A stretch of DNA of 64,000 nt from Acidimicrobiaceae bacterium. Lineage in GTDB: Bacteria > Actinomycetota > Acidimicrobiia > Acidimicrobiales > Aldehydirespiratoraceae. The stretch is taken from NCBI GenBank assembly GCA_009835735.1, contig VXWX01000010.1, forward strand, positions 29,772 to 93,771. Direction: 5' to 3'. Position numbers and translations under genes: made by a program. The notes beneath the pieces were generated by a model. The model did not search any database. It was not told the origin of the DNA and worked only from the letters and a program-made list of their open reading frames with translations. How positions within the stretch are numbered: the stretch's first letter is position 1; every line of letters begins with the position of its first letter. Of this stretch, positions 1 through 21,785 are shown piece by piece.

Positions 1-75
1 GATGGATGTCGAGGTCGTCGTCTCGGTGGTCGTGGATGTCTCGGTCGTCGTCTCGGTGATCGCGGTCGTCTCGGT
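1..75. repeat. 30-bp imperfect tandem repeat encoding an HRDDDRDIHD-like tail of the toxin
   Basis: 1-30 gatggatgtcgaggtcgtcgtctcggtggt vs 31-60 cgtggatgtctcggtcgtcgtctcggtgat, plus a partial third copy. Confidence 0.75.
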
Positions 76-1027
76 TGTGGGTGTGGTGTTGGTGGTGGGT
101 GGTGCTGGCTTGTCTGAGGGCGGCTATGGCGTTTTGGATTTGGTGGGTGTAGGCGCCGGTGGTGTCTGATGCCCATCGGTTCATGTCGGCGTTCATCAAC
201 TCGATGCAGAAGCCGTACCGCTCCGGCAGTGCGGTGAGCATGTCTGAGATGAGTTGTTGTTTGTCGTGGCGGGTGGTGGGGACATCGAATTGCAGTTCGT
301 TGGGGTTGAGGTCGCCGATGTCGGGGCCGTCGATGAGGCCTTCGAGCTCCACTGGGGCAGGTGAGGCGGTGGAGGGCCCCTTGGTGGGGTTGTGGAAGTC
401 CTGGTGGCTCTTGATCACATACATCTCACACACCGCCGCGGGGTCTTCGATGACGGGCCGCAGACTGGTGAGGTCATAGAGGTCGCGCACGGTTGGGCGG
501 CGCTGCCAGCGGGCGAGTTTCTCTGAGGCAACCTCGTCGGGGGTCATCACCGGCACCGCACAGGTGACATCGCTGCGGTAGTGGTCATGTATCGGCCGGG
601 GCAGCAGCCTGGCCGTCACGGGCTGCTGTATCGGAACGCTTGGCGCGAAGTCGCAGGCAACGCTGAGCGGCTCGGCTATGAACGGAACGTCGATACGGAC
701 GCGGCTGTGGCGCCCCAGCGCCAGCGTGCTGTTGAGGCCGCGGCCGCGGTCGCGGATTGACATGATCCGGGTCAGTCTGTCGCGGTCGGGGGCTGCGGTG
801 AGCGCGAAGTCCAGGTCATAGGAGATGCGCCGGTAGCGCTGCGGGTCGCAGTGGAACTTGCGCACCGCGGTGCCGCCCTTGAACACGAGACCGCCACGGG
901 CGAAGGCGTCGTTTTCGGCCAGCGCCATCAGATACAGGTCCAACGCGGCGTCACGGGCGACATCGCCCAGCCGCTGGGCGCTCAACCGCGGATGCAGACC
1001 CGCGATCACCCGGGGCGTCAACCCCAT
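1..1027 (-). CDS. AbiEii-family nucleotidyltransferase toxin (type IV TA), runs off the left edge
   Basis: Manual translation from ATG at 1027: MGLTPRVIAG...LVFKGGTAVRKFHCDPQRYRRISYDLDF, matching the AbiEii FKGGT..R.S.DLDF motif. No stop before base 1, so it is absent from the ORF track. Confidence 0.85.
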   Translation of the reverse strand, partial: MGLTPRVIAGLHPRLSAQRLGDVARDAALDLYLMALAENDAFARGGLVFKGGTAVRKFHCDPQRYRRISYDLDFALTAAPDRDRLTRIMSIRDRGRGLNSTLALGRHSRVRIDVPFIAEPLSVACDFAPSVPIQQPVTARLLPRPIHDHYRSDVTCAVPVMTPDEVASEKLARWQRRPTVRDLYDLTSLRPVIEDPAAVCEMYVIKSHQDFHNPTKGPSTASPAPVELEGLIDGPDIGDLNPNELQFDVPTTRHDKQQLISDMLTALPERYGFCIELMNADMNRWASDTTGAYTHQIQNAIAALRQASTTHHQHHTHNRDDRDHRDDDRDIHDHRDDDLDIH

Positions 1028-1056
1028 CGCTACAACCCCCCGCTACAGCGCCATCG

Positions 1057-1950
1057 CTACAACGACGACGAGGCCGCGCTGGAGGGCTCCCCATCCCAGC
1101 ACACGAAATGGCTGCCGGGGGGCTCCCAGTAGCGCTCGAAGATGTAGTCGACCACATCGAAATCCCCGTAGGTGCGCCCGCCCCAGCGGCGGCGGGGGAC
1201 ACCGAACTTGTACGGGCCGCGAGCACCCCCAGGCGCCAACGCCGACAACTCGGCCGCAGCCTCAGGCTGTTCGCCGCGCCACATGATGAACGCCGCCTTC
1301 ATCCACACCGACCGCGTCCGCCCCCCCAACTCGCACACCAACTCCTCGACCGCAGCGGCGCCGCACACCGCGTCAAGCCACTCGCCGACATCTTCGAAAC
1401 CGAACCTCGAAGGCCGAGCCGCCATAAAGGCCACCAACGTCGCCGGCGACCACACCGGCAGACCCTCCACGCTCCCCAACGGCGCCCGCGCCTGCCAGCG
1501 CAACAGATTGAACCCACCCAAACACCGCGGCACCAACACCCCAGCCGGCATCGCGATCGTCGGCTCCGTCGGCCTCTTGAGCCAGCCGCACACCTCCAAC
1601 ACAGAACGCCCCGCAACCACCGCCGGCGTCCGCGGATGAGTACGCAACCGCCCCAACAACTCATCAAAAGCCGCCGTCACATGAAACTCCCACACACCAC
1701 AACGCCACACCCCCCGAGCACGCATCGGAACCAACCAGCCACCCTCACGCAACACCCGCACCGCACGACGAGCCGCAACCTCACCGCCGCACCACACCGC
1801 CAAATCCCCCACAGTCACAACCCTCAAACCACTCGCCGCCATCGCCTCCACCACCGACCCCAACCCCACAGGCACTTCACGCAGACCCACATCAGACCGA
1901 CCCCCAGCACCCACCGGCACCCCAGCCACAGCCGCCTCAACCACCACCAC
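1057..1950 (-). CDS. AbiEi-family antitoxin / transcriptional regulator (type IV TA)
   Basis: 297 aa with a wHTH-like N-terminus (LREGGWLVPMRARGVW). Lies directly upstream of the AbiEii gene; AGGAGG RBS at 1952-1957. Confidence 0.7.
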   Translation of the reverse strand: MVVVEAAVAGVPVGAGGRSDVGLREVPVGLGSVVEAMAASGLRVVTVGDLAVWCGGEVAARRAVRVLREGGWLVPMRARGVWRCGVWEFHVTAAFDELLGRLRTHPRTPAVVAGRSVLEVCGWLKRPTEPTIAMPAGVLVPRCLGGFNLLRWQARAPLGSVEGLPVWSPATLVAFMAARPSRFGFEDVGEWLDAVCGAAAVEELVCELGGRTRSVWMKAAFIMWRGEQPEAAAELSALAPGGARGPYKFGVPRRRWGGRTYGDFDVVDYIFERYWEPPGSHFVCWDGEPSSAASSSL

Positions 1951-1971
1951 ACCTCCTGTCGTTCCAACACC

Positions 1972-2001
1972 ATTCTAGACGCAAACGCCGTCGCCGGGCA
2001 A
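1972..2001 (-). promoter_or_regulatory. Putative sigma70-type promoter of the AbiE operon
   Basis: TTGCCC-18 nt-TAGAAT on the minus strand upstream of the RBS. Confidence 0.55.
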
Positions 2002-2063
2002 GCCACCCGCCAGCCCAACCAACCCCCAGATCAAAAACACCGACATACACCGTCACCGCAACC

Positions 2064-2089
2064 GCGTTCCTCAGCGTTCGCATGCGTTC
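2064..2089 (+). repeat. Phased GCGTTC repeats, cluster 1
   Basis: GCGTTC at 2064, 2074, 2084. Confidence 0.8.
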
Positions 2090-2117
2090 CTCGGACCCCG
2101 GAGGCGTCGTTCGATAC

Positions 2118-2163
2118 TCGAACACCCGGGCTGTTCAAACCGTCGAACGGCCTAGGTGTTCGA
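2118..2163. promoter_or_regulatory. 46-bp imperfect inverted repeat (21-bp arms), candidate operator or recombination site
   Basis: tcgaacacccgggctgttcaa-accg-tcgaacggcctaggtgttcga; arms 17/21 complementary. Confidence 0.5.
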
Positions 2164-2543
2164 TGGCGGCACTGCAAGTGCAAACGTGTGGTGACCAAAC
2201 GACCCCACGAACGCACGCTGACGCCCCACACCCGGTCAACGACCCAGCCGCAACAGACACCGACACCAGCATCCCGGCCCGGCATTGGACCAAGAACCGC
2301 ACTCCCAACAACGAACGCAGCCTCAGCAATCCACCAGCACCCCTCGCAGAGCACATGCCCGCCGCGCCAGGTGACCGCGGGCCGGGCCGAGCGTCTGCGG
2401 CGGGCTACAGCACCAGTGTTCTTGTCGGGCGGCTCGGTGCTTGAAGTGGCCGATGCGACAGGGCTTCTTTGCGGCTTGCCAGTCTGTTCGGCTGTTACAA
2501 CTCCGCCGCCGCTGTTCCCAGCTGGGACCCGGCCGGCCAACTC

Positions 2544-3119
2544 CTATGTCTCTTCGAGCGGATCGTCGCAAATGCGCTCGAACTCCGTGTGAGCATGGCG
2601 GACGCCGGAGACCTCCGGCAGCAGCGATGCGAAGTTCCCCCAGTTCAGGACGTGGCAGTTGTCGTAGACATCGGTCTGCTCTTCCTTGATGCCGGAGATG
2701 CCCTGTTGGTTCCAGTGGGGGGTGTGTGCACAGATCAGCAGCTTCTCGGCCTTGTCGATGGACGTTCCCCACAGCTCGTTATCGATGCCGCCCCGGTCCT
2801 GGTCATCTTGCGTCGGGTGAACGCGTCCCGTGAAGAACCGCAGCAGCGCGGTGTTGTCTTCCCACACACCGTCATCGGAGTCGGGGTTCCACCACCGGTG
2901 ATCGCGGTTCGTGAACCTCGCGGCGAAGGTCTGATCGTTTGCCTTGCCGATGTAGAGCAGCGACTCGGTCCCGCTGGCTGGATGCGGGCCGTAGACCTGA
3001 TAGATCCCGAAGTCCGTGCCGCCATCCATCTCCAAGACATCACCGAAGGTGTGCGGACCGCTCCATAGAAGGTGAATGCGGGTCGGTTCGCGGCGCTCGG
3101 TGTCGGGGTCTACTGTCAT
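2544..3119 (-). CDS. GIY-YIG nuclease superfamily protein
   Basis: GIYQVYG...LLYIGKA, followed by Arg and later E...N (AEKLLI...HWN). Confidence 0.6.
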   Translation of the reverse strand: MTVDPDTERREPTRIHLLWSGPHTFGDVLEMDGGTDFGIYQVYGPHPASGTESLLYIGKANDQTFAARFTNRDHRWWNPDSDDGVWEDNTALLRFFTGRVHPTQDDQDRGGIDNELWGTSIDKAEKLLICAHTPHWNQQGISGIKEEQTDVYDNCHVLNWGNFASLLPEVSGVRHAHTEFERICDDPLEET

Positions 3120-3260
3120 CGACTAACGGGTGGTTTGCGCTCGGGCGCAGTCCTCACCAGCCTCGATCATCGGTCTCAGCTTATGCCTGCGCCGGGTAGA
3201 CCTACGCGTGGCCGTGATGGGCCCTGTCGAGCCGTTCGACAGGGCCGTCAGCGGCGTGGT

Positions 3261-3307
3261 GCGTTCGTTGGAGTGCCTGCGCGTTCGTGGGCGTTCCGGG
3301 GGCCTTC
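3261..3307 (+). repeat. Phased GCGTTC repeats, cluster 2
   Basis: GCGTTC at 3261, 3281, 3291; degenerate copies at 3271 (GAGTGC) and 3302 (GCCTTC). Confidence 0.8.
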
Positions 3308-3322
3308 GTAGCTTGCGGGGCC

Positions 3323-4297
3323 ATGGCGACCAGATCGAACGGCCCGGTTCCCACTGTGGTGGTGTACGGCGCTTCTGGCGGCGTGGGCACCACCACCGTG
3401 GCTGCGGCGATGGCCATGTTGACCCAGGCCAGCCACGACGGGGGCCACACCGTCCTGGTCGACTTCGACTCACGCGCCTTCGACGTGCTGGGCGAGCCGC
3501 CCTACAGCGACATCTCCGAGCCGGGGGCCACCCATCACGTCGGCGTTCATCTTGGCCTTGATGTGGTGTGCTGGCCCGGCGCCAGCTTCGATCCGATGGC
3601 TTTGCCCGGAGTGCTGGCCGCGGACCCGCAACCGGCCGGCGTGAACGCCGTAATCGTCGACGCCGCCACGGCCAGCCCGGCTGCCATGGGGGCACTGGGC
3701 CGCCACCAGCCTGCTGCGAGGACGGTGCTCGTCACGGCGAGCACCTACCCGGCGGCGTCGGCGGCGCGGGACCACGTGGCCGCCAGCGGCGCGCACCCTG
3801 ACGAGATCGTCGTGGTGGATGACTCCTCCAGGGCCTTCGGTGTGGCCCACTTCGCTACCTGGTGGCCGGCGGGCACCCAGCTGCGGGTGCTGCGACGCGA
3901 CCCGGCGGTGGCCGAGGTCATCGACGCCGGGCTGTTCGGGCTCGCCTCCAGGCCCGGGGAGCGGATCTTCCCCCACGCTTTGGCGGAGCTCCAGGCCTCG
4001 GCTGTGTTGTGCGACAGCACCGATCGGCGGCGTCTGTGGGCGGCGCTGCACGCCTCGCGCCCCGACAGCCCCGCCGCGGTCCACCAGATGCGCGAGTGGA
4101 CCCGACAGATCGACGGCGACCTCCCTTCGGCCACCGCTGCGGTGTCGTCCAACGGCAGTTCGTTGCGCGCTGGCTGCGCGGTTTGTGGCGTCGAGGGCGC
4201 CGGCCACGACCCCGGCTGCCCGGCCCGAACGGCTGTGCCGGGCCGTCGTGCCCTCAGCGCCGTGGGTGACAGCCGCAACGGGCTGAGCATCGTCTGA
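3323..4297 (+). CDS. ParA/MinD/CpaE-like P-loop protein with deviant Walker A and a C-terminal Cys/His motif
   Basis: YGASGGVGTTT, VLVDFD, VIVDA; C-terminal CAVCG..HDPGC. ATG at 3323 preferred. Confidence 0.6.
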   Translation: MATRSNGPVPTVVVYGASGGVGTTTVAAAMAMLTQASHDGGHTVLVDFDSRAFDVLGEPPYSDISEPGATHHVGVHLGLDVVCWPGASFDPMALPGVLAADPQPAGVNAVIVDAATASPAAMGALGRHQPAARTVLVTASTYPAASAARDHVAASGAHPDEIVVVDDSSRAFGVAHFATWWPAGTQLRVLRRDPAVAEVIDAGLFGLASRPGERIFPHALAELQASAVLCDSTDRRRLWAALHASRPDSPAAVHQMREWTRQIDGDLPSATAAVSSNGSSLRAGCAVCGVEGAGHDPGCPARTAVPGRRALSAVGDSRNGLSIV

Positions 4298-4370
4298 CGG
4301 GCCGCACAGGGGCTGCTGAAGGCCTCTTCGTGGTCTGCGACCTCGCTGCGGACGGGCTCGTCTGCTGGCT

Positions 4371-4417
4371 GCGTTCGTGAGCGTTCATGAGCGTTCCTGG
4401 TGCGTTCGTGGGCGTTC
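4371..4417 (+). repeat. Phased GCGTTC repeats, cluster 3
   Basis: GCGTTC at 4371, 4381, 4391, 4402, 4412. Confidence 0.9.
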
Positions 4418-4475
4418 GGGGTGCTGGTGCACGGTGAGGGTCGATACCGCAGCCCAGCGGAGAGGAGCACCCCTG

Positions 4476-4898
4476 ATGGGCACCAACGGAAGCCGAGGCC
4501 ACCTCCACAACGGCTCTGGGACCGCCGACTGGGCGGTCTGCGACACTGAGGAGCTGGAGGGGTCGGTGCTCGTGCAGGACCCGGCGGGGCCGGAGCTCCC
4601 GCCGTCGGTGATCGCCCCTGAGGGCTGGATGGCGGCCTGGGCGAACCGGTTCGACCCGGCTGCGCCCGACGCCGGCGAGGACCTGGCGGTGGCTTGGGAC
4701 CCTGAGCGGGTGGCGCAGGTGGCGATGACGCTTGAGCCTGTCACCGCCGCTGAGGAGACGGCGCTGGCCGAGACGGGCTGGCAGCGGCTGCGAGTGGACA
4801 GCCATGAGGTGTGGGCGAGGACCCCCGAGGCGGCCCAGCTAGAGATCGAGTCCCGGCGGCGGCACCCGTCGTCGCGGTCGATGGGGATCGGGCTGTGA
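4476..4898 (+). CDS. Hypothetical protein (element cargo)
   Basis: ATG 4476 with AGGAG RBS at 4463; ends RRRHPSSRSMGIGL. Confidence 0.6.
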   Translation: MGTNGSRGHLHNGSGTADWAVCDTEELEGSVLVQDPAGPELPPSVIAPEGWMAAWANRFDPAAPDAGEDLAVAWDPERVAQVAMTLEPVTAAEETALAETGWQRLRVDSHEVWARTPEAAQLEIESRRRHPSSRSMGIGL

Positions 4899-4974
4899 GC
4901 GCCGCGGCGATCATCGTCGCCGGCGTGGAACTGGCCGGCCCCGATGATGGCCCCCAGCGGGCCCGCTGCTGCCG

Positions 4975-5376
4975 GTGACTGGCCCCCAGCACCGCCACCG
5001 CAGCACCGCGGTGGTGCCGGTCAGCATCGAGGGTCTCGGCGACGAGGTGGTCACCGTCACCCCTGCGACCGCTCTGCGCTGGTACGGCTCCCAGGAGCGC
5101 GGCCAGCGCCACGGAGCGGTACAGGGCTTCGACATCACCGACTGCGCCGCCCAGCTGGCGGCCGCATCGATGCTGGGCCGGCGCAGCATCTGGTACCGCC
5201 GGATTGACGCTTGGTGCTTCGAGGTAGGCCCGCTGTCTCGTGGGCGGCGCCTCGCCGGCTATGTGGGCGTTGTGGGCGAACCCCCCGAGGCGTGCCTCGG
5301 GGTGCAGGAGTGCGCCGACGCGGTCACCGAGCGCCTAGAGGCAGCCCGCCGCAGCACCGGCCGCGCCGGCCGCTAG
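4975..5376 (+). CDS. Hypothetical protein, 5' end possibly frameshifted (alternative start GTG 4895)
   Basis: Follows the previous gene via a 27-codon ORF with GTGA overlaps at both ends. Confidence 0.4.
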   Translation: MTGPQHRHRSTAVVPVSIEGLGDEVVTVTPATALRWYGSQERGQRHGAVQGFDITDCAAQLAAASMLGRRSIWYRRIDAWCFEVGPLSRGRRLAGYVGVVGEPPEACLGVQECADAVTERLEAARRSTGRAGR

Positions 5377-5403
5377 AGCCGGCTCTGGCGCCGGGGGCAT
5401 CGG

Positions 5404-5970
5404 TCACATGTCAGTGGTGAGGTCTAGGTTGTGAGACGACGGAGGGGACCCGCCAGCGGCCAGCTGATCGAAGCGAGCCACGGTGGCTCCGTCGGGGACC
5501 TCGACGCGTTCGGTGCCGCCGGTGCCGGCCCGCGACGCCACCGCGTAGCGTTGCAGGTAGGAAATCACCGCCTCTGTGGAGGCGTCGAAGGCGGCCTCGA
5601 TCTGTTTGCGGGTGTCGTCATCGGAGACCGCCCACGCCACCGAGACGCTCTTGGGCACGCTGTAGGTCATGTCATAGGCCGACATGGCCTTGCGCCGGCG
5701 TCTCACCCCCAACGCGTCGGTGTAGCGGCCGGCGGGGTTGTATCTCCGGCCGAGTTGCTCGCCGGTGCCGGGATCCAAACAGGCCAGCACAGCCCGCAGC
5801 GCCGCCGAGGTGACGAGGGAGCCCTCGGTGACGTTCATCGCCCCGCGGGAGGCCCATCGGCCCGGTTTCTCGCCGGAGTCGGTGTAGTAGCCCTCGCGGC
5901 CAGACGCCCGGCCGGTGTAGTAGTCGGCGTGAGCGACCCCGATCTTCCCGATGGACAAGACCACGGCCAC
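5404..5970 (-). pseudogene. Truncated MobF (TrwC-type) relaxase, N-terminal fragment
   Basis: LSIGKI..DYY..GYY..PGRW, YDMTYSVPKSVS. Homology stops at ARFD (~5465), just before the H..R.DP.LH.H metal motif; no helicase domain. Confidence 0.85.
5409..5430 (+). promoter_or_regulatory. RecA-NDp / PafBC-type DNA-damage promoter
   Basis: TGTCAGTG-8 nt-TAGGTT fits the actinobacterial TGTCRGTG-N8-TAnnnT consensus; followed by GGAGG. Confidence 0.55.
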
Positions 5971-5990
5971 AGACAGTGCCCCAAGGCCGC

Positions 5991-6074
5991 GAACGCTCAG
6001 GAACGCACCAGCGCGAACGCTCAGGAACTCTCACGAACGCACCCAAGACGACACTCAGCAACGCTGGGGAACGC
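5991..6074 (-). repeat. Phased GCGTTC repeats, cluster 4 (upstream of the relaxase)
   Basis: GAACGC on + at 5991, 6001, 6015, 6035, 6069; degenerate copies at 6025 and 6059. Confidence 0.85.
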
Positions 6075-6634
6075 ACCCCCTCGGACCCTGCTGGTCACCC
6101 GGGCGAACCCATCCGGGCGTGGCGCTCAGATTCCGATGCCGTCTCGGCGCTGGTCCCGTGGGGTGTCGACGAGGGTCCGGCCGTCGGGACCGAGGTATTC
6201 GCAGGGGATCTCCATAAGCCGCTCCTCGGCTTTAGCGGCCCGCTCGACGTCTGGTTCTCTGTTCGGCTGTTCGAGGCTCCAGATCACCACCCGGCTGCGA
6301 ACGCAAGCGGCGGGGGCGTCGCTGAGTGAGAGTGATCGCCGAACTGACGGCAGTGGCGTCCGAACCCGATGGCCTCCTGCTGGCGGTGAAGGGCCACCGG
6401 CGTGATCCTTGGCACAAGAGGATCACTTACTCGACGGGGAGGACACCACCCAAAGCGGGGACTTGGAGCCAAAGATCCCCAAGCTGTGTAAGGGTAGCTT
6501 CCAGCCGTCGGTGCTTGAGCCGCGCCGTCGCGGCGATCGATGGGACTGCTGTCTGTCTGTCTGTGCTGTCGTGGTAGGTATGCCCGACCTGAAGGGCCGA
6601 CCTCGAGGGCCACGTCCGAGCCTAGAGTCGTGGG

Positions 6635-7603
6635 GTGCGCTGCTCGGAGTGCGATGAGGGCATTGGGCTCGCAGGGCCGTTCTCGGCGCCCCCACGCACC
6701 CGGATCCTGAGACTGGCCGCGGTCGGTCTTGCCCGGGTGATCGACGGCGCGGCCTGGGTCGGCTCACGCCTTCCTGGCTGGCTGGCCCACGCGCTGGCCG
6801 AGATCGCAGGCAACATCCAGTGGGCGCTGAGACCCAACAGGCGCAGGCAGTTGGCGTTCAACCTGTGCCATGCGGTGTCGCAGCCGCCCGACGATCGCGA
6901 GGTCGGTCGGCTGGTGCGCGAGGTAATGGTCAACGAGTCCCATGCCGCCGCCGACCTGCTGTGGGCCATCGGCCGGCCCCAGGAGTTCCTCGACACCGTC
7001 GTCTACAAGGACTGGCACCACGTGCAGGAGGCGGTCAACCAGGGCCGAGGCCTGATACTAGCCGGAACCCACCTCGGAGGATGGGAGGTGGCCACCGCGA
7101 TCCCCGGCGCCAGGGTGCCGGTGCCGACCAATGTGATCGTGGCCGACAACTGGATCGCGTGGGCCATCGAGCACGTGAGGGCCTCGGTCGGGTTGAGGAT
7201 CATGTATCGCCAGGTCGCGGCGTTGCGCAGCGTGAGGCGGCTTCAGGCCGGCGAGGCGGTGCTGCTGCTGGGCGACAACAGCGAGCTTGCCGGGCACACC
7301 CACCGGGTTCGCTTCTTGGACAGCGAGGTCCAGATGGCCGCAGGAGTAGCCGCGCTGGCCCGGCTGGCAGGCTCCCCGATCATCTCGTTCACGGTGCTGC
7401 CGCTGGGCCCGCGCCGCTGGCAGGCCGCGATGGACGCCCCCATCGACCCTCCACGGGCTGAGTCGGGCAGACAGGGCGAACAGGCCGTTCTGCAGCAACT
7501 GGCGGACCGCTGGTCCCAAGCGATCACAACCAACCCGGGACACTGGGCGATGGCCACCCCACTCCATTGGCTCGACAGCTCCCTGGACACGTCGCGGGAA
7601 TGA
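6635..7603 (+). CDS. Lysophospholipid acyltransferase family (PatA/HtrB-like)
   Basis: GRGLILAGTHLGGWE, LLGD, VRFLD, AITTNPGHW; start codon uncertain. Confidence 0.75.
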   Translation: MRCSECDEGIGLAGPFSAPPRTRILRLAAVGLARVIDGAAWVGSRLPGWLAHALAEIAGNIQWALRPNRRRQLAFNLCHAVSQPPDDREVGRLVREVMVNESHAAADLLWAIGRPQEFLDTVVYKDWHHVQEAVNQGRGLILAGTHLGGWEVATAIPGARVPVPTNVIVADNWIAWAIEHVRASVGLRIMYRQVAALRSVRRLQAGEAVLLLGDNSELAGHTHRVRFLDSEVQMAAGVAALARLAGSPIISFTVLPLGPRRWQAAMDAPIDPPRAESGRQGEQAVLQQLADRWSQAITTNPGHWAMATPLHWLDSSLDTSRE

Positions 7604-7727
7604 GCCCGGCTCGAGTCGCCATCGGTCCCGTGCGTTGGGCGGCTACCACAACGTGCGTCGACAGAGGTCCTCCTCGGTGTCCTCGCCGATGGAGGCGCTT
7701 CTGACGTGTGTAGTGGGTCGAACTCTC

Positions 7728-7733
7728 TATAAT
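7728..7733 (+). promoter_or_regulatory. -10 element of the hpn operon
   Basis: Perfect TATAAT in GC-rich DNA about 50 bp upstream of hpnH. Confidence 0.5.
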
Positions 7734-7779
7734 GTCGCGCGCGCAAGACTAGGTGATCGAAGGAACGGACTCGGCGCGT

Positions 7780-8802
7780 ATGGGGCTTCCCGCAGCACAG
7801 GCGTGGACGGTGGCGTCGTATGTGCTCAAACAGCGGTTGAGGGGCCGGGAGCGCTACCCGCTGGTGCTGATGCTCGAGCCGGTGCTGCGCTGCAACCTGG
7901 CCTGCGCCGGGTGCGGCAAGATCCAGTACCCGCCCCATGTGCTGAGACGGGCCCTCACCGTCGAGCAGTGCCTGGCCGCGGTCGAGGAGTGCGGGGCGCC
8001 GGTGGTGAGCATCCCCGGCGGTGAGCCGCTGCTGTACCCCCACATCGGCGAGTTGGTGCACGAGCTGACGAGCCGCAACAAGTACGTCTATTTGTGCACC
8101 AACGCGATCCGCCTGAAGCAGAAGCTCGAGGAGGGCGTGTTCGAGCCCTCCAAGCGGCTCAGCTTCAGCGTCCACATGGACGGCCTGCGGGCCGAGCACG
8201 ACCTGTCGGTGTGCCGCGACGGTGTGTACGACATCGCGGTGGACGCCATCGGTGAGGCGCTGCGGCGCGGCTTCCGGGTGACCACCAACACCACGCTGTT
8301 CAACACGGCCGAGCCCATGCGGGTGCGCGACTTCTTCGACGCCATGATGGATCTCGGAGTGGAGGGCATGATGGTGTCGCCCGGCTACAGCTACGACGCC
8401 GCCCCCGACCAGGACTCGTTCCTGGAGCGTGAGAAGACGGTCGAGCTGTTCTCGGCCATCATGGAGGGCAAGCCCAAGCGCTGGCGGTTCAACCAGTCGC
8501 CGCTGTTCCTGCAGTTCCTGATGGGCAAGCGGGATTACGAGTGCACACCGTGGGGCAACCCGCTGTACACGATCTTCGGGTGGCAGCGGCCCTGCTACCT
8601 GCTCCAGGACGGCTACGCCGCGACGTTCTCCGAGCTCATGGACGACACCCAGTGGGAGCAGTACGGGCGCAGCAGCGGCAACCCCAGCTGCCAGGACTGC
8701 ATGGTGCACTGCGGCTACGAGCCCTCGGCCGTGCACGCCACCTTCAGCTCCTGGCGGGGACTGCGCGACAGCGCGGTCGCAACCGTAACCGGCCGGCTCT
8801 AG
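7780..8802 (+). CDS. hpnH: Adenosyl-hopene transferase (radical SAM) HpnH
   Basis: YPLVLMLEP..RCNLACAGCGKI, CTPWGNP, CMVHCGYEP; shc nearby. Confidence 0.93.
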   Translation: MGLPAAQAWTVASYVLKQRLRGRERYPLVLMLEPVLRCNLACAGCGKIQYPPHVLRRALTVEQCLAAVEECGAPVVSIPGGEPLLYPHIGELVHELTSRNKYVYLCTNAIRLKQKLEEGVFEPSKRLSFSVHMDGLRAEHDLSVCRDGVYDIAVDAIGEALRRGFRVTTNTTLFNTAEPMRVRDFFDAMMDLGVEGMMVSPGYSYDAAPDQDSFLEREKTVELFSAIMEGKPKRWRFNQSPLFLQFLMGKRDYECTPWGNPLYTIFGWQRPCYLLQDGYAATFSELMDDTQWEQYGRSSGNPSCQDCMVHCGYEPSAVHATFSSWRGLRDSAVATVTGRL

Positions 8803-8807
8803 AGGCC

Positions 8808-9143
8808 ATGAGCGCGTCCGACGGCGGCGCCGGCGACGGCGGCGACGAGATCGCGGCTCTGGTGGAGCGGGCGTTCCACTACCGCGGCGACGTCACCGTG
8901 CGCACCGCGGCTGGCGTCGAGGTCGTCGGGTACCTGTTCAACCGCAACGACCGGGGGGAGGATCGGTGCGCGCAGCTCTTCGAGACCGGGACCGGCCGCG
9001 AGGTAGCCATCGCCTACCGCGACATCCGCGACGTGCTGTTCACCGGGCGTGACACCGCCGCGCCCAGACAGGACACCGGTGCGCCCGGACCGGTAGGCGG
9101 CAGCGACCCCGAGGCACCGGGGCGGACGGCCACGACGCCTTGA
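8808..9143 (+). CDS. Small hypothetical protein inside the hpn operon
   Basis: ATG 5 bp after the hpnH stop; AFHYRGDVTV..VVGYLFNR; overlaps the next start. Confidence 0.65.
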   Translation: MSASDGGAGDGGDEIAALVERAFHYRGDVTVRTAAGVEVVGYLFNRNDRGEDRCAQLFETGTGREVAIAYRDIRDVLFTGRDTAAPRQDTGAPGPVGGSDPEAPGRTATTP

Positions 9144-9958
9144 CCACCCACCGGTCGGCTCGCGGTGGCGTGCTGGTGGTCGCACCGACGCGCCGGGAAC
9201 TCGGCGGCCTCTCCCGCCGCGGCGGAAGGCTCGCTGCAGCGGGCCGGCCCGGCCGCGGACGCCGGCCGGCTAACGTTGGGCGGGTCGCCGTGGTAGGGAT
9301 CGGGCGTGCTGCGGGACCGCGCACCGCAGCCATGCTCGACGCCGAGCCGAAGGCGGTGCTGGTTTCGCTCGGGTTCGCCGGCGGGCTAGACCCCGCCCTG
9401 AGGCCAGGTGACCTCGTTGTCGCTGGCACGTACCGCCACGGCGACGGTGAGACCGTCGGCGACGCTAATCTTGCTGCCCGCGTCTCGATCCTGCTGGTGT
9501 GCCTCGGAATCGCCGCGCCCGCCGGAGTGGTGCTCACCACCGACGAGCCGCTGCTCACGCCCGACTCCAAGCAGCGGGCTCGCGCCGGCGGCGACCACCT
9601 GGTGGTGGACATGGAGGGCTACTGGATCGCCGGCGCCGCCCAGGCCCGGGGCGTGCCCCATATCGGGCTGCACTGCGTAGTCGACGAGGCTGATGTCGCT
9701 CTCCCCGACTTCGTGTCCAGAGTGGCCACGGCTCCTCATAGAAGAGAGTGGATCCACGCCCTCGGCGCGCTGAGATCGGTGGGCGCCGCCCGAGATCTCT
9801 CCATCCTGGCACGAAGGGCTCGAACCGCAGGTTGGGCTTTACAAGAAGCCGCCTGGGCTGTCCTTGAGGCCGTCGCCGACGGAGCCCTCCCCGGTGGCGC
9901 ACACGTCGCGCCCGAGAGCCCGTCCACTTCAACTATGCCTCCGTCCGGGGGCCGGTGA
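9140..9958 (+). CDS. hpnG: Hopanoid-associated nucleoside phosphorylase HpnG
   Basis: GIG..A, SLGFAGGLDPALRPGDLVV, VDME (PNP/MTAN fold); operon context. Confidence 0.75.
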   Translation: MTTHRSARGGVLVVAPTRRELGGLSRRGGRLAAAGRPGRGRRPANVGRVAVVGIGRAAGPRTAAMLDAEPKAVLVSLGFAGGLDPALRPGDLVVAGTYRHGDGETVGDANLAARVSILLVCLGIAAPAGVVLTTDEPLLTPDSKQRARAGGDHLVVDMEGYWIAGAAQARGVPHIGLHCVVDEADVALPDFVSRVATAPHRREWIHALGALRSVGAARDLSILARRARTAGWALQEAAWAVLEAVADGALPGGAHVAPESPSTSTMPPSGGR

Positions 9959-11001
9959 TGGCCCGGCTGTTGGTGACCGGCGGCTCGGGGTTCATCGGGG
10001 GCCATGTGGTGACCGCGGCGCTGCGCCGGGGCCACCACGTCGTCGCCCTGACCCGGGACGGGGCCTCGCCCGGGCCGGCCCATCCGCGGCTGGTCGTCGT
10101 ATCGGGAGACGTGCGCGACCCCGAAACGGTGCGGCACGCCGCGGAGGGCTGCGACGCCGTGCTGCATGTGGCCGGGCTCTACACCTTCGACCCGGCCCGA
10201 GCCGCAGAGATGCTCGAAGTCAACGCGCAGGGAACCCGCAACGTCATGGAGTGCGCCCTCGCGGCCGGCGTGGCGCGCATCGTTTACACGGGCACGGTGG
10301 GAACGACCGACTTCTCGGTCCGAAACACCGGTCGCCTCCCCAACGAGGACGACGTGGCCGGACCCGGCGCCGAGATGGGGCCCTACAAGCGCTCCAAACT
10401 CGAGGCCGAGCGCATCGTGGCCGAGATGGCGGCTCAGGGTGCTCCCATCGTCACCGTCTGCCCGACCGCGCCGGTGGGGCCCGGCGACCACAAGCCGACG
10501 CCGACGGGACGCATCGTCGTCGACTTCATGCGCGGCCGGATGTTCGCCTACGTCGAGACCGGGCTGAACTTCGTGCACGTCAGCGACGTCGCCGAGGGCC
10601 ACCTGCTGGCGCTGGAACGGGGACGCGACGGTGCCCGCTACCTGCTGGGCAGCCGCGACGGCAACCTCACGCTGGCGCAGGCCTTCGGCATCCTGTCCGG
10701 GATCACCGGCCGGCGGGCGCCCCGGGTGCGGGTGCCCTGCGCGGTGGCAGTGGGATTCGCCCACGCCACCGCAGTCGTCTGCCGGGCGTTGCGCCGGCCC
10801 CCGCTGGTCGGCCCCGAAGCGGCCCGGATGGCCTCGACGCCGATGTGGGTGGACCCGTCGCGCAGTGTCGCCGAGCTGGGCCTCCCCCAGACGCCGGTCG
10901 CCGAGGCGTTCCGGGAAGCCGTCGACTGGTTCGCCTACCACGGCTACGCCAACGCCCCCCGAAGCGCAGTCGCCGCCGGCTCAACGGCCGGGCGGACCTA
11001 G
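9955..11001 (+). CDS. hpnA: Hopanoid-associated NAD-dependent epimerase/dehydratase HpnA
   Basis: TGGSGFIG, YKRSK, PTAPVGPGDHKPTPTG. Confidence 0.85.
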   Translation: MMARLLVTGGSGFIGGHVVTAALRRGHHVVALTRDGASPGPAHPRLVVVSGDVRDPETVRHAAEGCDAVLHVAGLYTFDPARAAEMLEVNAQGTRNVMECALAAGVARIVYTGTVGTTDFSVRNTGRLPNEDDVAGPGAEMGPYKRSKLEAERIVAEMAAQGAPIVTVCPTAPVGPGDHKPTPTGRIVVDFMRGRMFAYVETGLNFVHVSDVAEGHLLALERGRDGARYLLGSRDGNLTLAQAFGILSGITGRRAPRVRVPCAVAVGFAHATAVVCRALRRPPLVGPEAARMASTPMWVDPSRSVAELGLPQTPVAEAFREAVDWFAYHGYANAPRSAVAAGSTAGRT

Positions 11002-11008
11002 CACCGCC

Positions 11009-13174
11009 ATGATGGACAACCATCAGGCTCACCAGAGCGTCCGCGAGGCGGTGGAGCGCACCCAGCAGTACTTCCTGCGCACCCAGCGCGATGACGGCTG
11101 CTGGTGGGGGGAGCTCGAGTCCAACCCCACCATCGAGGCCGAGTACATCATGCTCACCCGCTTCCTCGGATCCGACGAGGGCGACCGGACCGGACGGGTG
11201 GCCGCCGACATCCGCCGCCGCCAGCAGCCCGACGGCTCCTGGCGCATGTACTTCGGCGCGCCCGGAGACCTCAGCACCACCATCGAGTGCTACTTCGCCC
11301 TCAAGCTGGCCGGCGACCCGCCCGACGCGCCCCACATGGCCCAGGCCCGGGCCTTCATCATCGAGAACGGCGGCATCCCCAAATCCCGGGTGTTCACCAA
11401 GATCTGGCTGGCCCTGTTCGGTCAATGGGACTGGAGGGCGACCCCGTCCATGCCCCCCGAGATCATGCTGCTGCCGAAGTGGGCGCCCTTCAACATCTAC
11501 CGGTTCTCCAGCTGGGCCCGGGCCACCATCGTGCCGATGACCATCGTGTTGACCCTCAAACCGACCCGCCCGCCGCCCGCCGGCGCCGGGATCGAGGAGC
11601 TGCGCCGCGACGGCCCCGAAGCGCTGGCCGTGTCGCGTTTCAAGCCCAACCCGCTGTCGGTGCAGGGCGGGTTCCTGCTCATGGACCGCGCCCTGCGCCT
11701 GTGGCGGGGGCTGCGCCTGGTCCCCGGCCGCAGGCGGGCGCTGCGGGCCGCGGTCGACTGGATCGTCTCGCACCAGGAGGGCGACGGCTCGTGGGGCGGC
11801 ATCCAGCCGCCGTGGGTGTACTCGCTGATCGCGTTGAGCGCCCTCGGACACCCGCTCGACCATCCCGTGCTGGCCAAGGGGCTCCAGGGCTTCCGCAACG
11901 AGTGGAGCCTGCCGTCGCCCGACGGCGCCGCGCTGAGGGTCCAGGCCTGCCTGTCGCCCGCATGGGACACCGCGCTGGCCATGCGCGGGCTGATGGACTC
12001 CGGAGTGTCCCCCGACCACCCCGCCATCCAGCGGGCCGCCGAATGGCTGGTGGGCAAGGAGGTGCGCTACGCGGGCGACTGGGCGGTCAAGAGGCCCCAC
12101 CTCGAGCCCAGCGGCTGGGCCTTCGGGTTCGACAACGTCAACTACCCCGACATCGACGACTCGTCAGTGATCGTCGCCAACCTCGCCCTCACCAACCTCG
12201 CCGACCGGGCCAGCGACTCGGCCAAGGAGGCCACCATCGACCGCGCCGTGGACTGGCTCACCGGAATGCAGTCCTCCAACGGCGGTTGGGCCGCCTTCGA
12301 CTACAACAACGACTCCCGCTCGGTCACCAAGATCCCGTTCGCCGACTTCGGAGAGGTGCTCGACCCGCCCAGCGCCGACATCACCGCCCACATGCTCGAG
12401 ATGTACGGGATCCTCGGCTACTCACGGTGGCATCCAGCGGTGAGGCGGGGACTCCACTACCTGTGGCAGCAACAGGAACCCGACGGCTCCTGGTTCGGGC
12501 GGTGGGGAGTGAACTACCTGTACGGGACCGGTGCCGTGCTCCCCGCGCTGGAGGCCCTCGGCGTCGACATGGCCCAGCCCGCGGTGCGCAAGGCCGTGCA
12601 GTGGCTCGTCGACACCCAGAACCCCGACGGCGGATGGGGCGAAACGTGCGAGAGCTATGTGGACCCCACCCTCAGCGGCCAAGGCGACAGCACCGCCTCC
12701 CAGACCGCCTGGGCCCTCATCGCGCTCATCGCCGCCGGCGAAGCGGCCGGCGAGCCCGTCACCAGAGGCATCGAGTTCCTGGTGGCCACCCAGCAGGCCG
12801 ACGGCACCTGGGACGAGCCGCAGTTCACCGGCACCGGCTTCCCAGGCTACGGCCACGGCGACAGGCCCACCAAGAAGGGGGCTCCCGCCGACAGCCTCCA
12901 GGGCGCAGAGATGGGCGCCGCCTTCATGATCAACTACCACCTGTACCGGAACTACTTCCCGCTGTGGGCCCTGGGCCGCTACCTCGCAGCAGTCGCACCG
13001 AGAGTCGCCCAAGCCGTACCCCTAGGGCGCACCGAGACCGAAACAGACAAGTCACCCAACGCCATACAAGAGGTGATTGACTTACCTACAGGACCTAGCC
13101 GCCGGGCACGGCGCCAGCGATCACCAATGGGAAGTCATCGCGCAGTTCACCGACCTACAGCACCGCCCCCTTGA
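11009..13174 (+). CDS. shc: Squalene-hopene cyclase
   Basis: YPDIDD protonation motif, QW repeats (QxxDGSW), WGGIQP, YRNYFPLWALGRY. Real start is ATG 11009 or 11012. Confidence 0.95.
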   Translation: MMDNHQAHQSVREAVERTQQYFLRTQRDDGCWWGELESNPTIEAEYIMLTRFLGSDEGDRTGRVAADIRRRQQPDGSWRMYFGAPGDLSTTIECYFALKLAGDPPDAPHMAQARAFIIENGGIPKSRVFTKIWLALFGQWDWRATPSMPPEIMLLPKWAPFNIYRFSSWARATIVPMTIVLTLKPTRPPPAGAGIEELRRDGPEALAVSRFKPNPLSVQGGFLLMDRALRLWRGLRLVPGRRRALRAAVDWIVSHQEGDGSWGGIQPPWVYSLIALSALGHPLDHPVLAKGLQGFRNEWSLPSPDGAALRVQACLSPAWDTALAMRGLMDSGVSPDHPAIQRAAEWLVGKEVRYAGDWAVKRPHLEPSGWAFGFDNVNYPDIDDSSVIVANLALTNLADRASDSAKEATIDRAVDWLTGMQSSNGGWAAFDYNNDSRSVTKIPFADFGEVLDPPSADITAHMLEMYGILGYSRWHPAVRRGLHYLWQQQEPDGSWFGRWGVNYLYGTGAVLPALEALGVDMAQPAVRKAVQWLVDTQNPDGGWGETCESYVDPTLSGQGDSTASQTAWALIALIAAGEAAGEPVTRGIEFLVATQQADGTWDEPQFTGTGFPGYGHGDRPTKKGAPADSLQGAEMGAAFMINYHLYRNYFPLWALGRYLAAVAPRVAQAVPLGRTETETDKSPNAIQEVIDLPTGPSRRARRQRSPMGSHRAVHRPTAPPP

Positions 13175-15461: not shown

Positions 15462-16622
15462 CTATGCGATGTAGTCGTTCCATTGCTGCATCAGCGTGCG
15501 GCGGCGCTCGAGCATGTCAGAGCGAGCGTATGCGCCCTCGACGCCCGCAACGGCGTGGCCCAGTGCCATCTCGGCGAGGTCTCGGGGCACGCCGGCATCT
15601 GAGCACCACGAACGGAACGTGGCTCGCAGCCCGTGCGCTGAGCTTGGGATATCGAGGTCGCGCAGCAGCTTCACGTAGGTGTTCTCTGACACCGCTCGCC
15701 CCGTCACCGGCGACGGGAACACCAGCGCGTCGACGGTGGTGCCGTTGCGGGCTTCGGTGAGCACCTCAACAGCTCGTTTGCTGAGTGGCACGCGGAACTG
15801 TGTGCTGGTCTTGTAGCGGGCTGCGGGGATGGTCCACACCGCGGTGTCGAGGTCGAACTCGTCCCAGGTGGCACAGCGGACCTCGCCGGGTCGGGTCGCG
15901 GTCAAAGCCAGCAGCTCAAGAGCCAGCTTGGTGGCTGCGGCTGCGGCTGATGCGCGGACCATTTGGAGCGCGTAGGGGAGGTCGCTGTGGTGCAGCGCCC
16001 GCTGGTGGTTGGTGCGGTGGCGCAGTTTGGGCATCGCGGCCACAGCCGCCGCGGTGGGGTCGCTCTCTCGTAGGCCGCGGCCCATCGCGTATTTCATGGT
16101 GGTGGAGATCCGTTGTGCGGTTCTGCGGGCGAGTTCGGGGCGGTCCCACACCCGGTCAAGCACCGCCACCACATCGGCTGCGGCCACCTCTGCGACTGGC
16201 ATCGGCCCGATCGTGGCGTCGATGTGGTTCGCCAGCAGTGACCGCCACGACTGTTCGGTGTTGCTGGTGGGCTTCCAGTTGGTGCGGTGCAACTCGATCA
16301 CCGACACCATCGCGTCTGAGAAGGTCACCGCGTGGCGTCGGCGCGGGTCGCGTCCCTCCTCCACGGCCTGGCGGTTGGCCAGCGCCCGCTCACGCGCCAG
16401 CGCCAACGACACCGCCGGATAGGCGCCCAGCCCGAGGCTCACGACCCGGCCCCCGATGCGGATGCGCTGGGCCCAGGTCTTTGACCAGCGGCCGTTCACG
16501 GTCGGCTTCACCAGTAGGCTCAGCCCATGTCCGCCTCTGCCGTCTCCGTAGCGACCGGCCCGGTTGATGGTGCGCACGAAGGCCGCGGTCAGCACCTTCG
16601 GACGGGAGGAACTCGAACTCAT
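15462..16622 (-). CDS. P4-type tyrosine integrase with arm-DNA-binding domain
   Basis: N-terminal GRYGDG..GLSLLVKP..SKTW; catalytic R (TATRPGE), K, HGLR, LGH and Y intact. Confidence 0.93.
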   Translation of the reverse strand: MSSSSSRPKVLTAAFVRTINRAGRYGDGRGGHGLSLLVKPTVNGRWSKTWAQRIRIGGRVVSLGLGAYPAVSLALARERALANRQAVEEGRDPRRRHAVTFSDAMVSVIELHRTNWKPTSNTEQSWRSLLANHIDATIGPMPVAEVAAADVVAVLDRVWDRPELARRTAQRISTTMKYAMGRGLRESDPTAAAVAAMPKLRHRTNHQRALHHSDLPYALQMVRASAAAAATKLALELLALTATRPGEVRCATWDEFDLDTAVWTIPAARYKTSTQFRVPLSKRAVEVLTEARNGTTVDALVFPSPVTGRAVSENTYVKLLRDLDIPSSAHGLRATFRSWCSDAGVPRDLAEMALGHAVAGVEGAYARSDMLERRRTLMQQWNDYIA

Positions 16623-20526: not shown

Positions 20527-21785
20527 GTGTCGCCTCCGAAGTAGCCGAAGACGGTCCGGATGAGGAGGCGCGACAGGGCGACCTGGTCGCTGGGCGCGAC
20601 CGCGTTCATGCCGTACTGGAAGTCGACGTCGACGCCGGGCTTGGAGACCTTGGGAAGGCCGACCCGCGCCGTGGGGATGCCGCTGGCGCGGAGGATATTG
20701 GCGTCCGTGGCACCGGACAGGCCCCGTACCGGCTGGTGCAGCCGGCCGGTCTCGGCCTCCCAGGCCTTGACAGCCGCCTGCACGACCGGCTCCGAGGGGT
20801 CGGTGCAGGTGCCACCGATCGCAACCGTGCGGGTCACGGTGGCGTCGATGCCGGCGGCAGTCGCTCGCCGGCCGACGCGTTCTGCCAGCGCCCGCTCGGC
20901 TGAGTCGGCATCGACTCCGGGCGGGATGCGGAGATCAACCGTGAACTCACATGTGCAGCCGGTGAACGCGGCCGCGGAAGGGTCTCCACCTCGGACTGCG
21001 GCCACGATGCCCTGCGGCCGGTTGAACTCATCGGATCGAGCCTCGGCCCATTCTTCGATCCAGGACTCCAGGTCGAGGATCAGGTCGGCGGCGTCGGCGA
21101 TGGCGCTGCGGTATGCGAGCAGGTGGCGGCTGCCGGCATACGTGTGGATGCCCGACACCCGCACGGTGAACCAGGCCAGGCCGACCTCGCTCCACGACAC
21201 CGCCCAGCCGGACTTGGCGATCACGGCCGCGTCCGGGCGGACGGCGTCGATGAGCGCCTCGCACCCCGCGCCGTGGCCGTCCCGCAGGTGCGGCGCACGC
21301 CGGTTCACCGGCATGCCCAGGCATCCGAAGCCGGCGATGACCCGGCCCGGCAGGTCGGCTCCGGCGGACAAGAGCGCTTCGACCGCCATGAGCACACATG
21401 CGGCATGGCCCTTGGGGTTCTGAGCACCCAACCCAACCATCCAGCCGTGCTCTTGACGGGCTTCAGGCTCCATGTCGGGTCGGGCCTGCGGGCTGGCCCA
21501 GGGGAGGCCCAGATCCGGATCCCCCGCGGTGAGCGTGTCGATCGGCGAGTACAGCAGCAGCGACGGGCCGCACCCGTCCGATCCCAGGACGCCCCAGGAG
21601 TTGGCCGCATTGGCATCGAGCCACTGGGTGCGGCCCTGCATGCCGACCGCGTTGAGCGACTCCGCTATCTGCGCGGCTAGGGCACCTTCTTCGCCCGTCG
21701 GCGAAGGCGTGGCGACGAGCATCCCGGTGAGCTCGCGCAGCCGGGACGCCGACACCCGGTCGAGGGCGTCGTCGAGCGCGCTCAT
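20523..21785 (-). CDS. M20/ArgE-DapE fold protein lacking canonical metal ligands
   Basis: SPTGEE, dimerisation domain and GATDA are present; the metal-ligand positions are substituted. Confidence 0.7.
   Translation of the reverse strand: MSALDDALDRVSASRLRELTGMLVATPSPTGEEGALAAQIAESLNAVGMQGRTQWLDANAANSWGVLGSDGCGPSLLLYSPIDTLTAGDPDLGLPWASPQARPDMEPEARQEHGWMVGLGAQNPKGHAACVLMAVEALLSAGADLPGRVIAGFGCLGMPVNRRAPHLRDGHGAGCEALIDAVRPDAAVIAKSGWAVSWSEVGLAWFTVRVSGIHTYAGSRHLLAYRSAIADAADLILDLESWIEEWAEARSDEFNRPQGIVAAVRGGDPSAAAFTGCTCEFTVDLRIPPGVDADSAERALAERVGRRATAAGIDATVTRTVAIGGTCTDPSEPVVQAAVKAWEAETGRLHQPVRGLSGATDANILRASGIPTARVGLPKVSKPGVDVDFQYGMNAVAPSDQVALSRLLIRTVFGYFGGDT

Follow-up and report, generated by a model that had tools for sequence, protein, structure and literature searches.

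Phased GCGTTC arrays in the mobile defence islands of an uncultured sponge-bacterial genus

The locus and its four arrays

The stretch of DNA analysed here, referred to throughout as the window, comprises 64,000 nucleotides of an Acidimicrobiaceae bacterium genome (assembly GCA_009835735.1, contig VXWX01000010.1, positions 29,772 to 93,771) and carries near its beginning part of a mobile element in which the hexamer GCGTTC recurs at a period of about 10 bp in four separate arrays. The genes among which the arrays lie encode a 191-amino-acid (aa) protein, a 324-aa ParA-like protein, the products of two open reading frames (ORFs) of no known family and the remnant of a TrwC-type relaxase (Table 1); the right edge of the element falls beyond a 54-aa ORF and before the hopanoid genes that begin at 6635. 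Arrays of this kind mark one family of mobile defence islands in one uncultured sponge-bacterial genus. Here G000 denotes the window's own genome, other G-numbers the genomes compared with it and L-numbers the fetched loci; C123 numbering refers to the window's contig, and negative window positions lie to the left of the window.

Table 1. Features of the element, in window coordinates
Feature	Position	Strand	Basis or remark
Conserved box (ACATACACCGTCACCGCAACC type), directly 5' of array 1	2034..2063	+	Alignment of 38 modules
Array 1, three perfect GCGTTC at 10 bp (2064/2074/2084), module 5' arm	2064..2089	+	Arrangement recurs in 41/103 arrays
Variable module part, GTTCGA-N3-TCGAAC palindromes	2090..2162	+	Long hairpin as single-stranded DNA, -25.5 kcal/mol, z -2.36
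Module core: hairpin GCACT-GCA-AGTGC (2169-2181), then AAACGTGTGG + GTGACCAAAC	2163..2200	+	Recombination junction
Module 3' arm: inverted GAACGC at 2209-2214 and one degenerate copy	2205..2225	-	Inverted arrays abut the core in at least 17 other modules
191-aa protein, converging on the module's core side	2544..3119	-	No Pfam/NCBIfam match
Array 2, perfect hexamers at 3261/3281/3291, degenerate copy at 3271 (GAGTGC, 4/6 letters match)	3261..3296	+	Promoter-type geometry
324-aa ParA-like protein, P-loop GASGGVGTTT without lysine	3323..4297	+	Profile and sequence comparison
Array 3, five perfect GCGTTC (4371/4381/4391/4402/4412; spacings 10, 10, 11, 10), 58 nt before ATG 4476	4371..4417	+	Only G061 shares it
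Two ORFs, 140 and 133 aa, no known family	4476..5376	+	Present only in G000 and G061
TrwC-type relaxase remnant, 188 aa	5404..5970	-	Profile positions 5-147 of 286
Array 4, five perfect hexamers (5991/6001/6015/6035/6069) and two degenerate (6025 GAGTTC, 5/6; 6059 GCGTTG), before relaxase start	5991..6074	-	Identical in G026, G061
54-aa ORF upstream of array 4	6126..6290	-	Conserved with array 4 in G026, G061

A sequence-only reading of the window had proposed these four arrays, and all of them, bracketed degenerate copies included, were confirmed. The copies within an array are direct repeats in a single orientation with spacings of 10 or 11 bp dominant, which is the site layout of recombination directionality factors (RDFs). 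Their departure from chance was assessed through comparison with shuffled sequence. Single copies of GCGTTC are mildly enriched (71 in the window vs 47.9 +/- 7.6 in shuffles), and the exact pair GCGTTC-N4-GCGTTC occurs seven times against an expectation of 0.01, a figure that none of 100 shuffles reached. All seven exact 10-bp pairs fall within the four arrays and, as first noticed by eye, the remaining 58 kb of the window contain no additional GCGTTC array. The genome-wide scan that had been suggested, for clusters of three or more same-strand copies, yielded eight in the 3.29-Mb assembly: five on the window's contig (one of these 11.4 kb to the left of the window) and one each on C149, C29 and C32. 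The C32 cluster is unphased, with spacings of 16 and 23, and is probably due to chance; the most frequent short GCGTTC spacing in the assembly is 10 bp (16 pairs). Three of the arrays stand in sense orientation before a start codon, within the range of 20-60 bp originally given, the last hexamer preceding ATG 3323 by 26 nt (array 2), ATG 4476 by 58 nt (array 3) and GTG 5970 on the minus strand by 20 nt (array 4). The idea that the arrays mark the genes of the element fails for array 1, which has no gene downstream in sense orientation.

The arrays are non-random and confined to mobile DNA. Three hexamers in phase (a triple array) were found in 22 of the 39 genomes of the genus, with 75 matches, and a reversed-pattern control gave none in all 39. 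In an order-wide sample of 301 genomes the triple array is present in G000, in one further member of the genus and in one genome of another family; outside the genus but within the order it is thus found in 1 of 299 genomes, and other genera of the family have it in 0 of 5. A frequency of 22/39 within the genus vs 1/299 outside it is not that of a sequence equally frequent in core intergenic DNA. A scan of all species genomes for triple arrays returned at least 119 stretches among the matches listed, a number close to what tandem repeats of other kinds and chance would produce. In its most frequent form the array reads GCGTTC-GCGA-GCGTTC-CTCA-GCGTTC; hexamer and 10-bp register stay constant while the 4-nt spacers vary freely, the copy number runs from 2 to 5, and arrays occur in at least five unrelated sequence contexts. 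The single occurrence in another family of the order (G225, L066 10068-10093) is a lone triple array of the commonest form, positioned before a SURF1-family gene and without the module core described below; either transfer from the genus or chance would account for it.

The members of the genus are Acidimicrobiia metagenome bins, several of them sponge-derived and one labelled Candidatus Aldehydirespirator, the only genus name encountered, for which a full-text search yielded one mention, in a study of sponge Actinobacteriota genomes. The public runs containing the window are likewise sponge metagenomes, with no RNA run listed among the 22.

Promoter-type arrays and convergent modules

From the fetched loci, 103 distinct arrays (at least two hexamers at 9-13 bp) were taken; genes in the other genomes were called with a crude ORF filter based on third-position G+C, which misses genes. 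One recurrent setting is that of a promoter: 20 of the 103 arrays end at a fixed distance, 11-12 nt, before a -10 box of the form TANNNT, and an ATG or a leader follows, the ATG being 6-8 nt after TANNNT. The downstream contexts of these promoter-type arrays are of two unrelated sorts, namely homologues of the ParA-like N-terminus and the leader of alpA, the latter extending for 100-520 nt between the array promoter and the alpA gene. Array 2 is of the former sort. It ends 12 nt before TAGCTT (3309-3314), ATG 3323 follows 8 nt further on, and the start of the 324-aa ParA-like gene is probably leaderless.

Conservation of the arrays upstream of homologues, a check proposed by the sequence-only reading, is evident in both gene types concerned. 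Eight of the 11 loci with homologues of the ParA-like N-terminus carry arrays, in six cases directly upstream, and an identical array stands before the relaxases of G026 and G061, so that arrays are kept before ParA-like homologues and intact relaxases rather than absent upstream of orthologues. In the interval from array to alpA, two ORFs of 154 and 158 aa look non-coding and are therefore read as leaders. The alpA leader of G022 (L080, G022:C2:1944135-1947326) is 98% like the array-linked leaders, and in it the array and -10 box are swapped, exactly at the predicted start point, for a 27-bp copy of the 3' end of transfer-messenger RNA (tmRNA). An integrase fragment lies just upstream of this tmRNA 3'-end copy. 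Arrays 3 and 4 fall in neither the promoter nor the module class by the rule used, and array 3 has no TANNNT at 9-15 nt.

The other recurrent setting is a module of about 200 bp. In the window the module extends over 2022-2204, with array 1 as its 5' arm, and three more copies in the genome are 76-81% identical. In an alignment of 38 modules the order of parts is a box of about 22 nt, 3-5 hexamers, 60-90 variable bases (in some modules with GTTCGA-N3-TCGAAC palindromes, in others with a longer GC-rich hairpin), the core, and 2-3 inverted hexamers. The core consensus is GGCGGCACT-NNN-AGTGCAARCGTGTGGYGGCCAAACC, a hairpin with 5-nt arms and a 3-nt loop, then 9 nt, then a purine; proximal arm and tail are invariant in the 38 modules, and the distal arm is GCACT in 27 of them and GCTCT in 11. 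A conserved core is found within 220 nt downstream of 41 of the 103 arrays, and of the 42 that are neither of this sort nor of promoter type, at least 17 abut the same core from the opposite side in inverted orientation. Core and arrays also occur together at the level of genomes: allowing at most one mismatch, the core motif is present in 21 of the 39 genus genomes, all 21 of them array-bearing, with one genome having arrays only and none the core only. All 10 pairs of cores that lie no more than 14 kb apart are inverted, cores outward and boxes inward, although fewer than 10 are independent since at least two pairs are orthologous.

The flanks of the modules reassort between genomes. When 350-bp flanks were compared for 741 module pairs, at least nine pairs had one flank 0.86-1.00 identical and the other at the baseline of 0.64, and in the alignments the switch of identity falls between the hairpin loop and the end of CCAAACCACC, within about 30 invariant bases. 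An example is given by G000 and G061, which differ in an 11.4-kb cargo block abutting the 5' side of the window module, identity resuming at 2165. Because flanks reassort and identity switches within the core, these comparisons identify the core as a recombination junction, for which site-specific exchange and homologous exchange in a conserved stretch would both fit.

The left module copy of the same island lies at window -11529..-11335 (C123:18242-18436), inverted relative to 2022-2204. Between these two modules are 13.4 kb of cargo, with genes for a 1139-aa Calx-beta repeat protein, an enoyl-CoA hydratase, a HepT-like protein and AbiE, and it is 11.4 kb of this that G061 is without. Contigs of four sponge-metagenome runs were compared with C123:17600-37500 and begin or end at each of the two module cores, which is what a multi-copy repeat would produce. 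A single contig (run X5) joins L247 282 and 15084, corresponding to window positions of about -11890 and 2912, on opposite strands; what it joins are the two inverted copies of the 191-aa gene, and inversion of the whole segment would yield such a joint. One contig skips about 5.7 kb of repeat-protein genes. Since no joint falls inside a core, the metagenome contigs neither support nor reject exchange there.

Carrier islands and neighbouring genes

In complete genomes, the 20-kb contexts of the arrays contain P4-type integrases with an arm-binding domain and AlpA-family proteins of 65-70 aa, along with a cargo of AbiE, HEPN/nucleotidyltransferase pairs, type I restriction-modification, helicases and a SMODS protein. 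Judged by their predicted genes, the carriers are integrase/AlpA defence islands. They use the ends of tRNA-Met or tmRNA genes, and for most modules an integrase with an Arm-DNA-bind_3 domain is encoded at a distance of 0.4-17 kb. Around the arrays nothing protein-coding is conserved except the integrase, AlpA and the ParA-like N-terminus, and a clustering of small ORFs (7030 ORFs from 37 loci) recovered only translated repeats, integrase and AlpA. The arrays had been expected to be confined to relaxase-bearing islands, as a general transfer regulon; this is contradicted by the presence of TrwC in 6 of the 39 genomes and of arrays in 22. An element of G017 that does possess TrwC, AlpA and integrase has no phased hexamer row. 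Only four 21-bp tandem repeats are found in this element (L245 and L246 joined, about 21490-21570; G017:C1, about 2655490). On C149, between tRNA-Met and int (L002 4393-4587), TGTGCCA is repeated at 10-bp spacing beside the integrase start; these repeats are possibly arm-type sites of the C149 integrase.

Turning to the genes of the window, the relaxase ORF matches only the first half of the TrwC profile. At the same site, with the same hopanoid genes and array, G026 has an intact relaxase of 1663 aa comprising TrwC, helicase and primase, and G061 one of at least 999 aa that reaches the contig end. The G000 gene is cut at window 5465, the point at which both G061 contigs diverge, and on this comparison the window relaxase is a deletion remnant. 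The earlier naming of a relaxase is correct as to the TrwC type, although what is present is a 188-aa N-terminal remnant. A similar qualification applies to the ParA-like protein, which has no Pfam match and no PDB sequence match. Its likeness to BcsQ/MinD/ParA covers residues 10-50 only, the best NCBIfam score is 25.6 bits vs a cut-off of 157.85, and its P-loop lacks both Walker lysines; the name is thus apt for residues 10-50 and not for the P-loop or the family as a whole. For the same reasons, absent Walker lysines and scores far under family cut-offs, the parS role once suggested for the arrays is weak.

The 140-, 133- and 191-aa products belong to no family found in Pfam/NCBIfam searches. 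Homologues of the 191-aa protein are encoded at the corresponding place in G026 and, as a fragment, next to the module copy on the left, and the protein recurs on the core side of modules; by eye it has what we take to be a GIY...YIG-like motif pair (FGIYQVYG, LLYIGKA), with no family match behind it. An AbiEi/AbiEii pair lies to the left of array 1. Window positions 1000-2350 have a strong strand bias (GC skew -0.37 and AT skew +0.44 over 1001-2000), the plus strand being A+C-rich over both the AbiEi-like ORF and the spacer that follows the module. An odd 'tRNA-???' called by ARAGORN at 1434-1527 is probably false, and Rfam gave no match near any family threshold in window 1-8000. Directly to the right of the element is a hopanoid cluster (6635-13174) of acyltransferase, radical-SAM protein with DUF3463, epimerase and squalene-hopene cyclase, and a further P4-type integrase gene is found at 15465-16604 on the minus strand, with no tRNA gene and no array nearby.

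Interpretation and relation to known systems

We infer protein binding, regulation and the identity of the binder alike from these patterns; the arrays are most likely protein-binding sites, and cooperative binding on one face of the helix, as initially proposed, still reads as the best account of them. By position only, the leading candidate binder is the AlpA-family protein. AlpA (PF05930) is encoded in 12 of the 16 20-kb array loci, and at 19 of 30 AlpA loci an array on the sense strand precedes the gene by 110-870 bp; genome by genome, 18 have both arrays and AlpA, 4 arrays only, 5 AlpA only and 12 neither. On sequence comparison, however, the evidence for AlpA as the reader appears mixed, for reasons given below. 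Homologues of the integrase, another candidate, occur in 29 of the 39 genomes, including 9 of the 17 that are array-free. A 98-aa protein with a C-terminal helix-turn-helix (HTH) has its gene a short way upstream of four modules, on their box side (L025 1766-2059 and L065 9605-9898, both on the minus strand; C149:26717-26830) and in two cases is the only gene between an inverted module pair; its presence in only 4 of the 39 genomes excludes it as the general binder. A search of the array islands for a ribbon-helix-helix gene gave none. The AlpA antiterminator of Pseudomonas aeruginosa was considered as a model and set aside: it is larger, not the same protein, and recognises a single 6-bp element placed between -35 and -10 (PMC9371919).

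Tentatively, and somewhat short of an even chance, we favour a dual role in the style of an RDF, whereby the arrays would serve as cooperative same-face binding sites both at promoters and around the recombination core. The GCGTTC hexamers would be recognised by a small sequence-specific DNA-binding protein, belonging to the islands or acting on them, whose monomers would align head to tail, one per helical turn, as with TorI-like RDFs. At promoters the row would span about -26 to -60 and set the output of the parA-like/alpA operon, and by position the relaxase gene and the 4476 operon may be further targets of the same protein. In the module of about 200 bp, two rows would converge on the hairpin core and could bend or wrap the DNA for strand exchange or nicking by a recombinase or relaxase. 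TorI is a small winged-helix RDF that binds cooperatively and represses transcription (PMC2951348, PMC3509656). Its cooperative sites number five, of which three occupy 28 bp with gaps of 2 nt, adjoining the -35 box of PintS and lying within attL, and their binding represses intS; the mutated site letters given there are GTTCG, GATCG and GTCCG (PMC2951348).

Several observations weigh against this dual role, or against AlpA as its agent. Two different AlpA recognition helices (SRTTIWRLRR and SRRTLCRWRA) both occur behind GCGTTC arrays, and AlpAs with the first of these, 74-91% identical, also occur without arrays; motif and recognition helix, that is, do not go together. Five AlpA-positive genomes have GCGTTC pairs at background level only, and the sole AlpA of G000 (on C94, 57% identical) has no array upstream, no AlpA being encoded near the arrays of the window. 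No binder has been confirmed among the AlpA, integrase and 98-aa HTH candidates. A uniform promoter role is at odds with arrays 3 and 4, which are without a recognisable -10 box at a fixed distance. The array counts, moreover, are not independent samples, because the genomes of one genus are relatives, and the conserved order of array and alpA may reflect shared descent of one cassette. TorI has only a weak HTH_17 match, not PF05930, and no BLASTP match to the island AlpAs; as it is not detectably related to them, the shared GTTCG may be coincidence.

Of lesser probability than the RDF-style role, in our judgement, is that the module constitutes a new site-specific exchange platform for defence islands, with the hexamer rows scaffolding a synaptic complex. 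Its parts would be the box, the GCGTTC row, the palindromes, the invariant hairpin core and the inverted GCGTTC row, and cargo such as AbiE, HEPN/MNT, restriction-modification and the GIY-YIG-like gene would change places or orientation at the core through the action in trans of a recombinase or a relaxase. What suggests it is the core-outward arrangement of 10/10 close pairs, together with the switch of flank identity within the 30-bp core in at least nine pairs.

Among the rival explanations, which rank below the RDF-style dual role, relaxosome accessory sites come next and then integrase arm sites, followed by the rest. The relaxosome explanation, which is close to what the sequence-only reading had suggested, we consider unlikely. 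The module would be an origin of transfer (oriT) of TrwC type (MOBF) with the core hairpin and tail as its nic region, and the GCGTTC rows would bind an accessory protein that also regulates the relaxase and its neighbours, relaxase-less islands being mobilised in trans. For R388, the nic rules are 5-nt arms, a 4-nt loop, essential positions 12-25, a tolerant distal arm and a purine after the nick, and TrwC recombines two nic sites (PMC4176350). To these the core conforms, in architecture only, with its 5-nt arms, 9-nt tail, purine and fixed proximal arm, and recombination of two nic sites by TrwC would give junctions at the core; array 4 stands directly before the TrwC gene in G000, G026 and G061, and the module region folds into hairpins as single-stranded DNA. 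Yet TrwC is present in 6 of the 39 genomes and array-linked in 3, as compared with 21 for the core, and there is no core beside the G026 relaxase. No accessory-protein gene was found, and the loci read showed neither a coupling protein nor genes for a mating pore. Upstream of the nearest plasmid relaxase, from Iamia (35% identical), nothing similar occurs, and the inversion of all 10 close module pairs is not predicted for transfer origins.

It is doubtful that the module is instead an attP-like site of a P4-type tyrosine integrase, with rows read by the N-terminal arm-binding domain and promoter arrays that are arm sites reused as operators. Phage lambda attP has tandem, oppositely oriented arm sites around a conserved core, which the two-arm arrangement with palindromes between resembles, Arm-DNA-bind_3 integrases are encoded 0.4-17 kb from most modules, and the core is a recombination junction; on the other hand the core does not resemble the ends of tRNA-Met or tmRNA genes used by the islands, and no attB is evident, because the core (at most one mismatch) is missing from all 17 array-free genomes. 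The tRNA-proximal junction on C149 has the TGTGCCA repeat instead of GCGTTC, 9 of the 17 array-free genomes have integrase homologues, and an intact attP within a chromosome would be unexpected. Less probable again is a centromere of parC/parS type doubling as an autoregulatory operator, bound by AlpA or by the 140-aa product: while partition loci of types Ib and II typically have phased short iterons ahead of the ATPase gene, an array directly precedes the ParA-like start in G000 and six further loci, and alpA, a small DNA-binding gene, follows the ParA-like ORF in several, that ORF has a P-loop without both lysines, resembles ParA/MinD over residues 10-50 only and far under cut-off, and is cut to 50-90 aa in most relatives. 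The elements are also chromosomal islands, and arrays occur where no ParA-like gene exists. Very improbable, finally, are two further explanations. Replication-origin iterons, hexamer sets flanking a region opened by an island initiator after excision, would leave the promoter-linked arrays unexplained, and among the proteins and ORFs clustered around the arrays there is no conserved initiator or helicase next to the modules, nor is there an AT-rich unwinding element, despite the less G+C-rich conserved stretch between the two repeat sets and the primase domain of the G026 relaxase. The rows might equally lack a dedicated binder and be inherited parts of one promoter/junction cassette, perhaps with intrinsic curvature, spread by recombination; simple descent could give the array-leader-alpA order, and no binder was found among the candidates examined. 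Against such inheritance are the retention of hexamer and 10-bp register among freely varying spacers, the copy number of 2 to 5, the at least five unrelated contexts and the lack of an A-tract in GCGTTC.

The islands are the main visible mobile DNA of this uncultured sponge-associated Acidimicrobiia genus and carry its defence genes. As a marker, the array makes it cheap to locate the borders of islands, and promoters, in metagenome bins; it also offers a way into the exchange of defence cargo and a shortlist of proteins for binding. Should the core prove a dedicated exchange site, it would represent a new recombination system.

Rows of phased short repeats are a known means by which small proteins control promoters and recombination sites, and the closest comparison is with the TorI sites I1-I5 at attL/PintS of the Escherichia coli prophage KplE1 (CPS-53). 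These too are direct sites, of 8 bp and containing GTTCG, placed every 10 bp near a -35 box and inside the recombination region. The sites predicted here differ in having up to five copies, in flanking, from either side, a core other than a tRNA end, and in serving several promoters per island. The parallel, as we see it, is a likeness of mechanism, not of membership. In the Cox/Apl systems of P2-like phages, one small excisionase-repressor reads phased direct repeats at the switch promoter and the attachment site; unlike these, the islands are without phage functions and the motif is different. Plasmid repeat operators, such as the omega heptads of pSM19035, the ParR iterons of parC and the StbA repeats of R388, are global operators doubling as centromeres, with rows of short direct repeats upstream of several operons, an ATPase gene included, and one small reader protein. 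The present arrays depart from them in the 10-bp period, the chromosomal island setting, the degenerate ATPase and the lack of a ribbon-helix-helix gene.

With the oriT of R388 (PMC4176350) the module shares a hairpin with 5-nt arms, a tail, a purine and a tolerant distal arm, and a TrwC-family gene lies behind array 4; it differs in that most core-bearing genomes are without TrwC and no accessory protein was found, nicking at the core being putative. We know of no description of hexamer rows at a 10-bp period as a feature of the R388 origin. The kind of element is a known one, and what is new is the GCGTTC motif, the convergent-array module and its junction role in defence islands.

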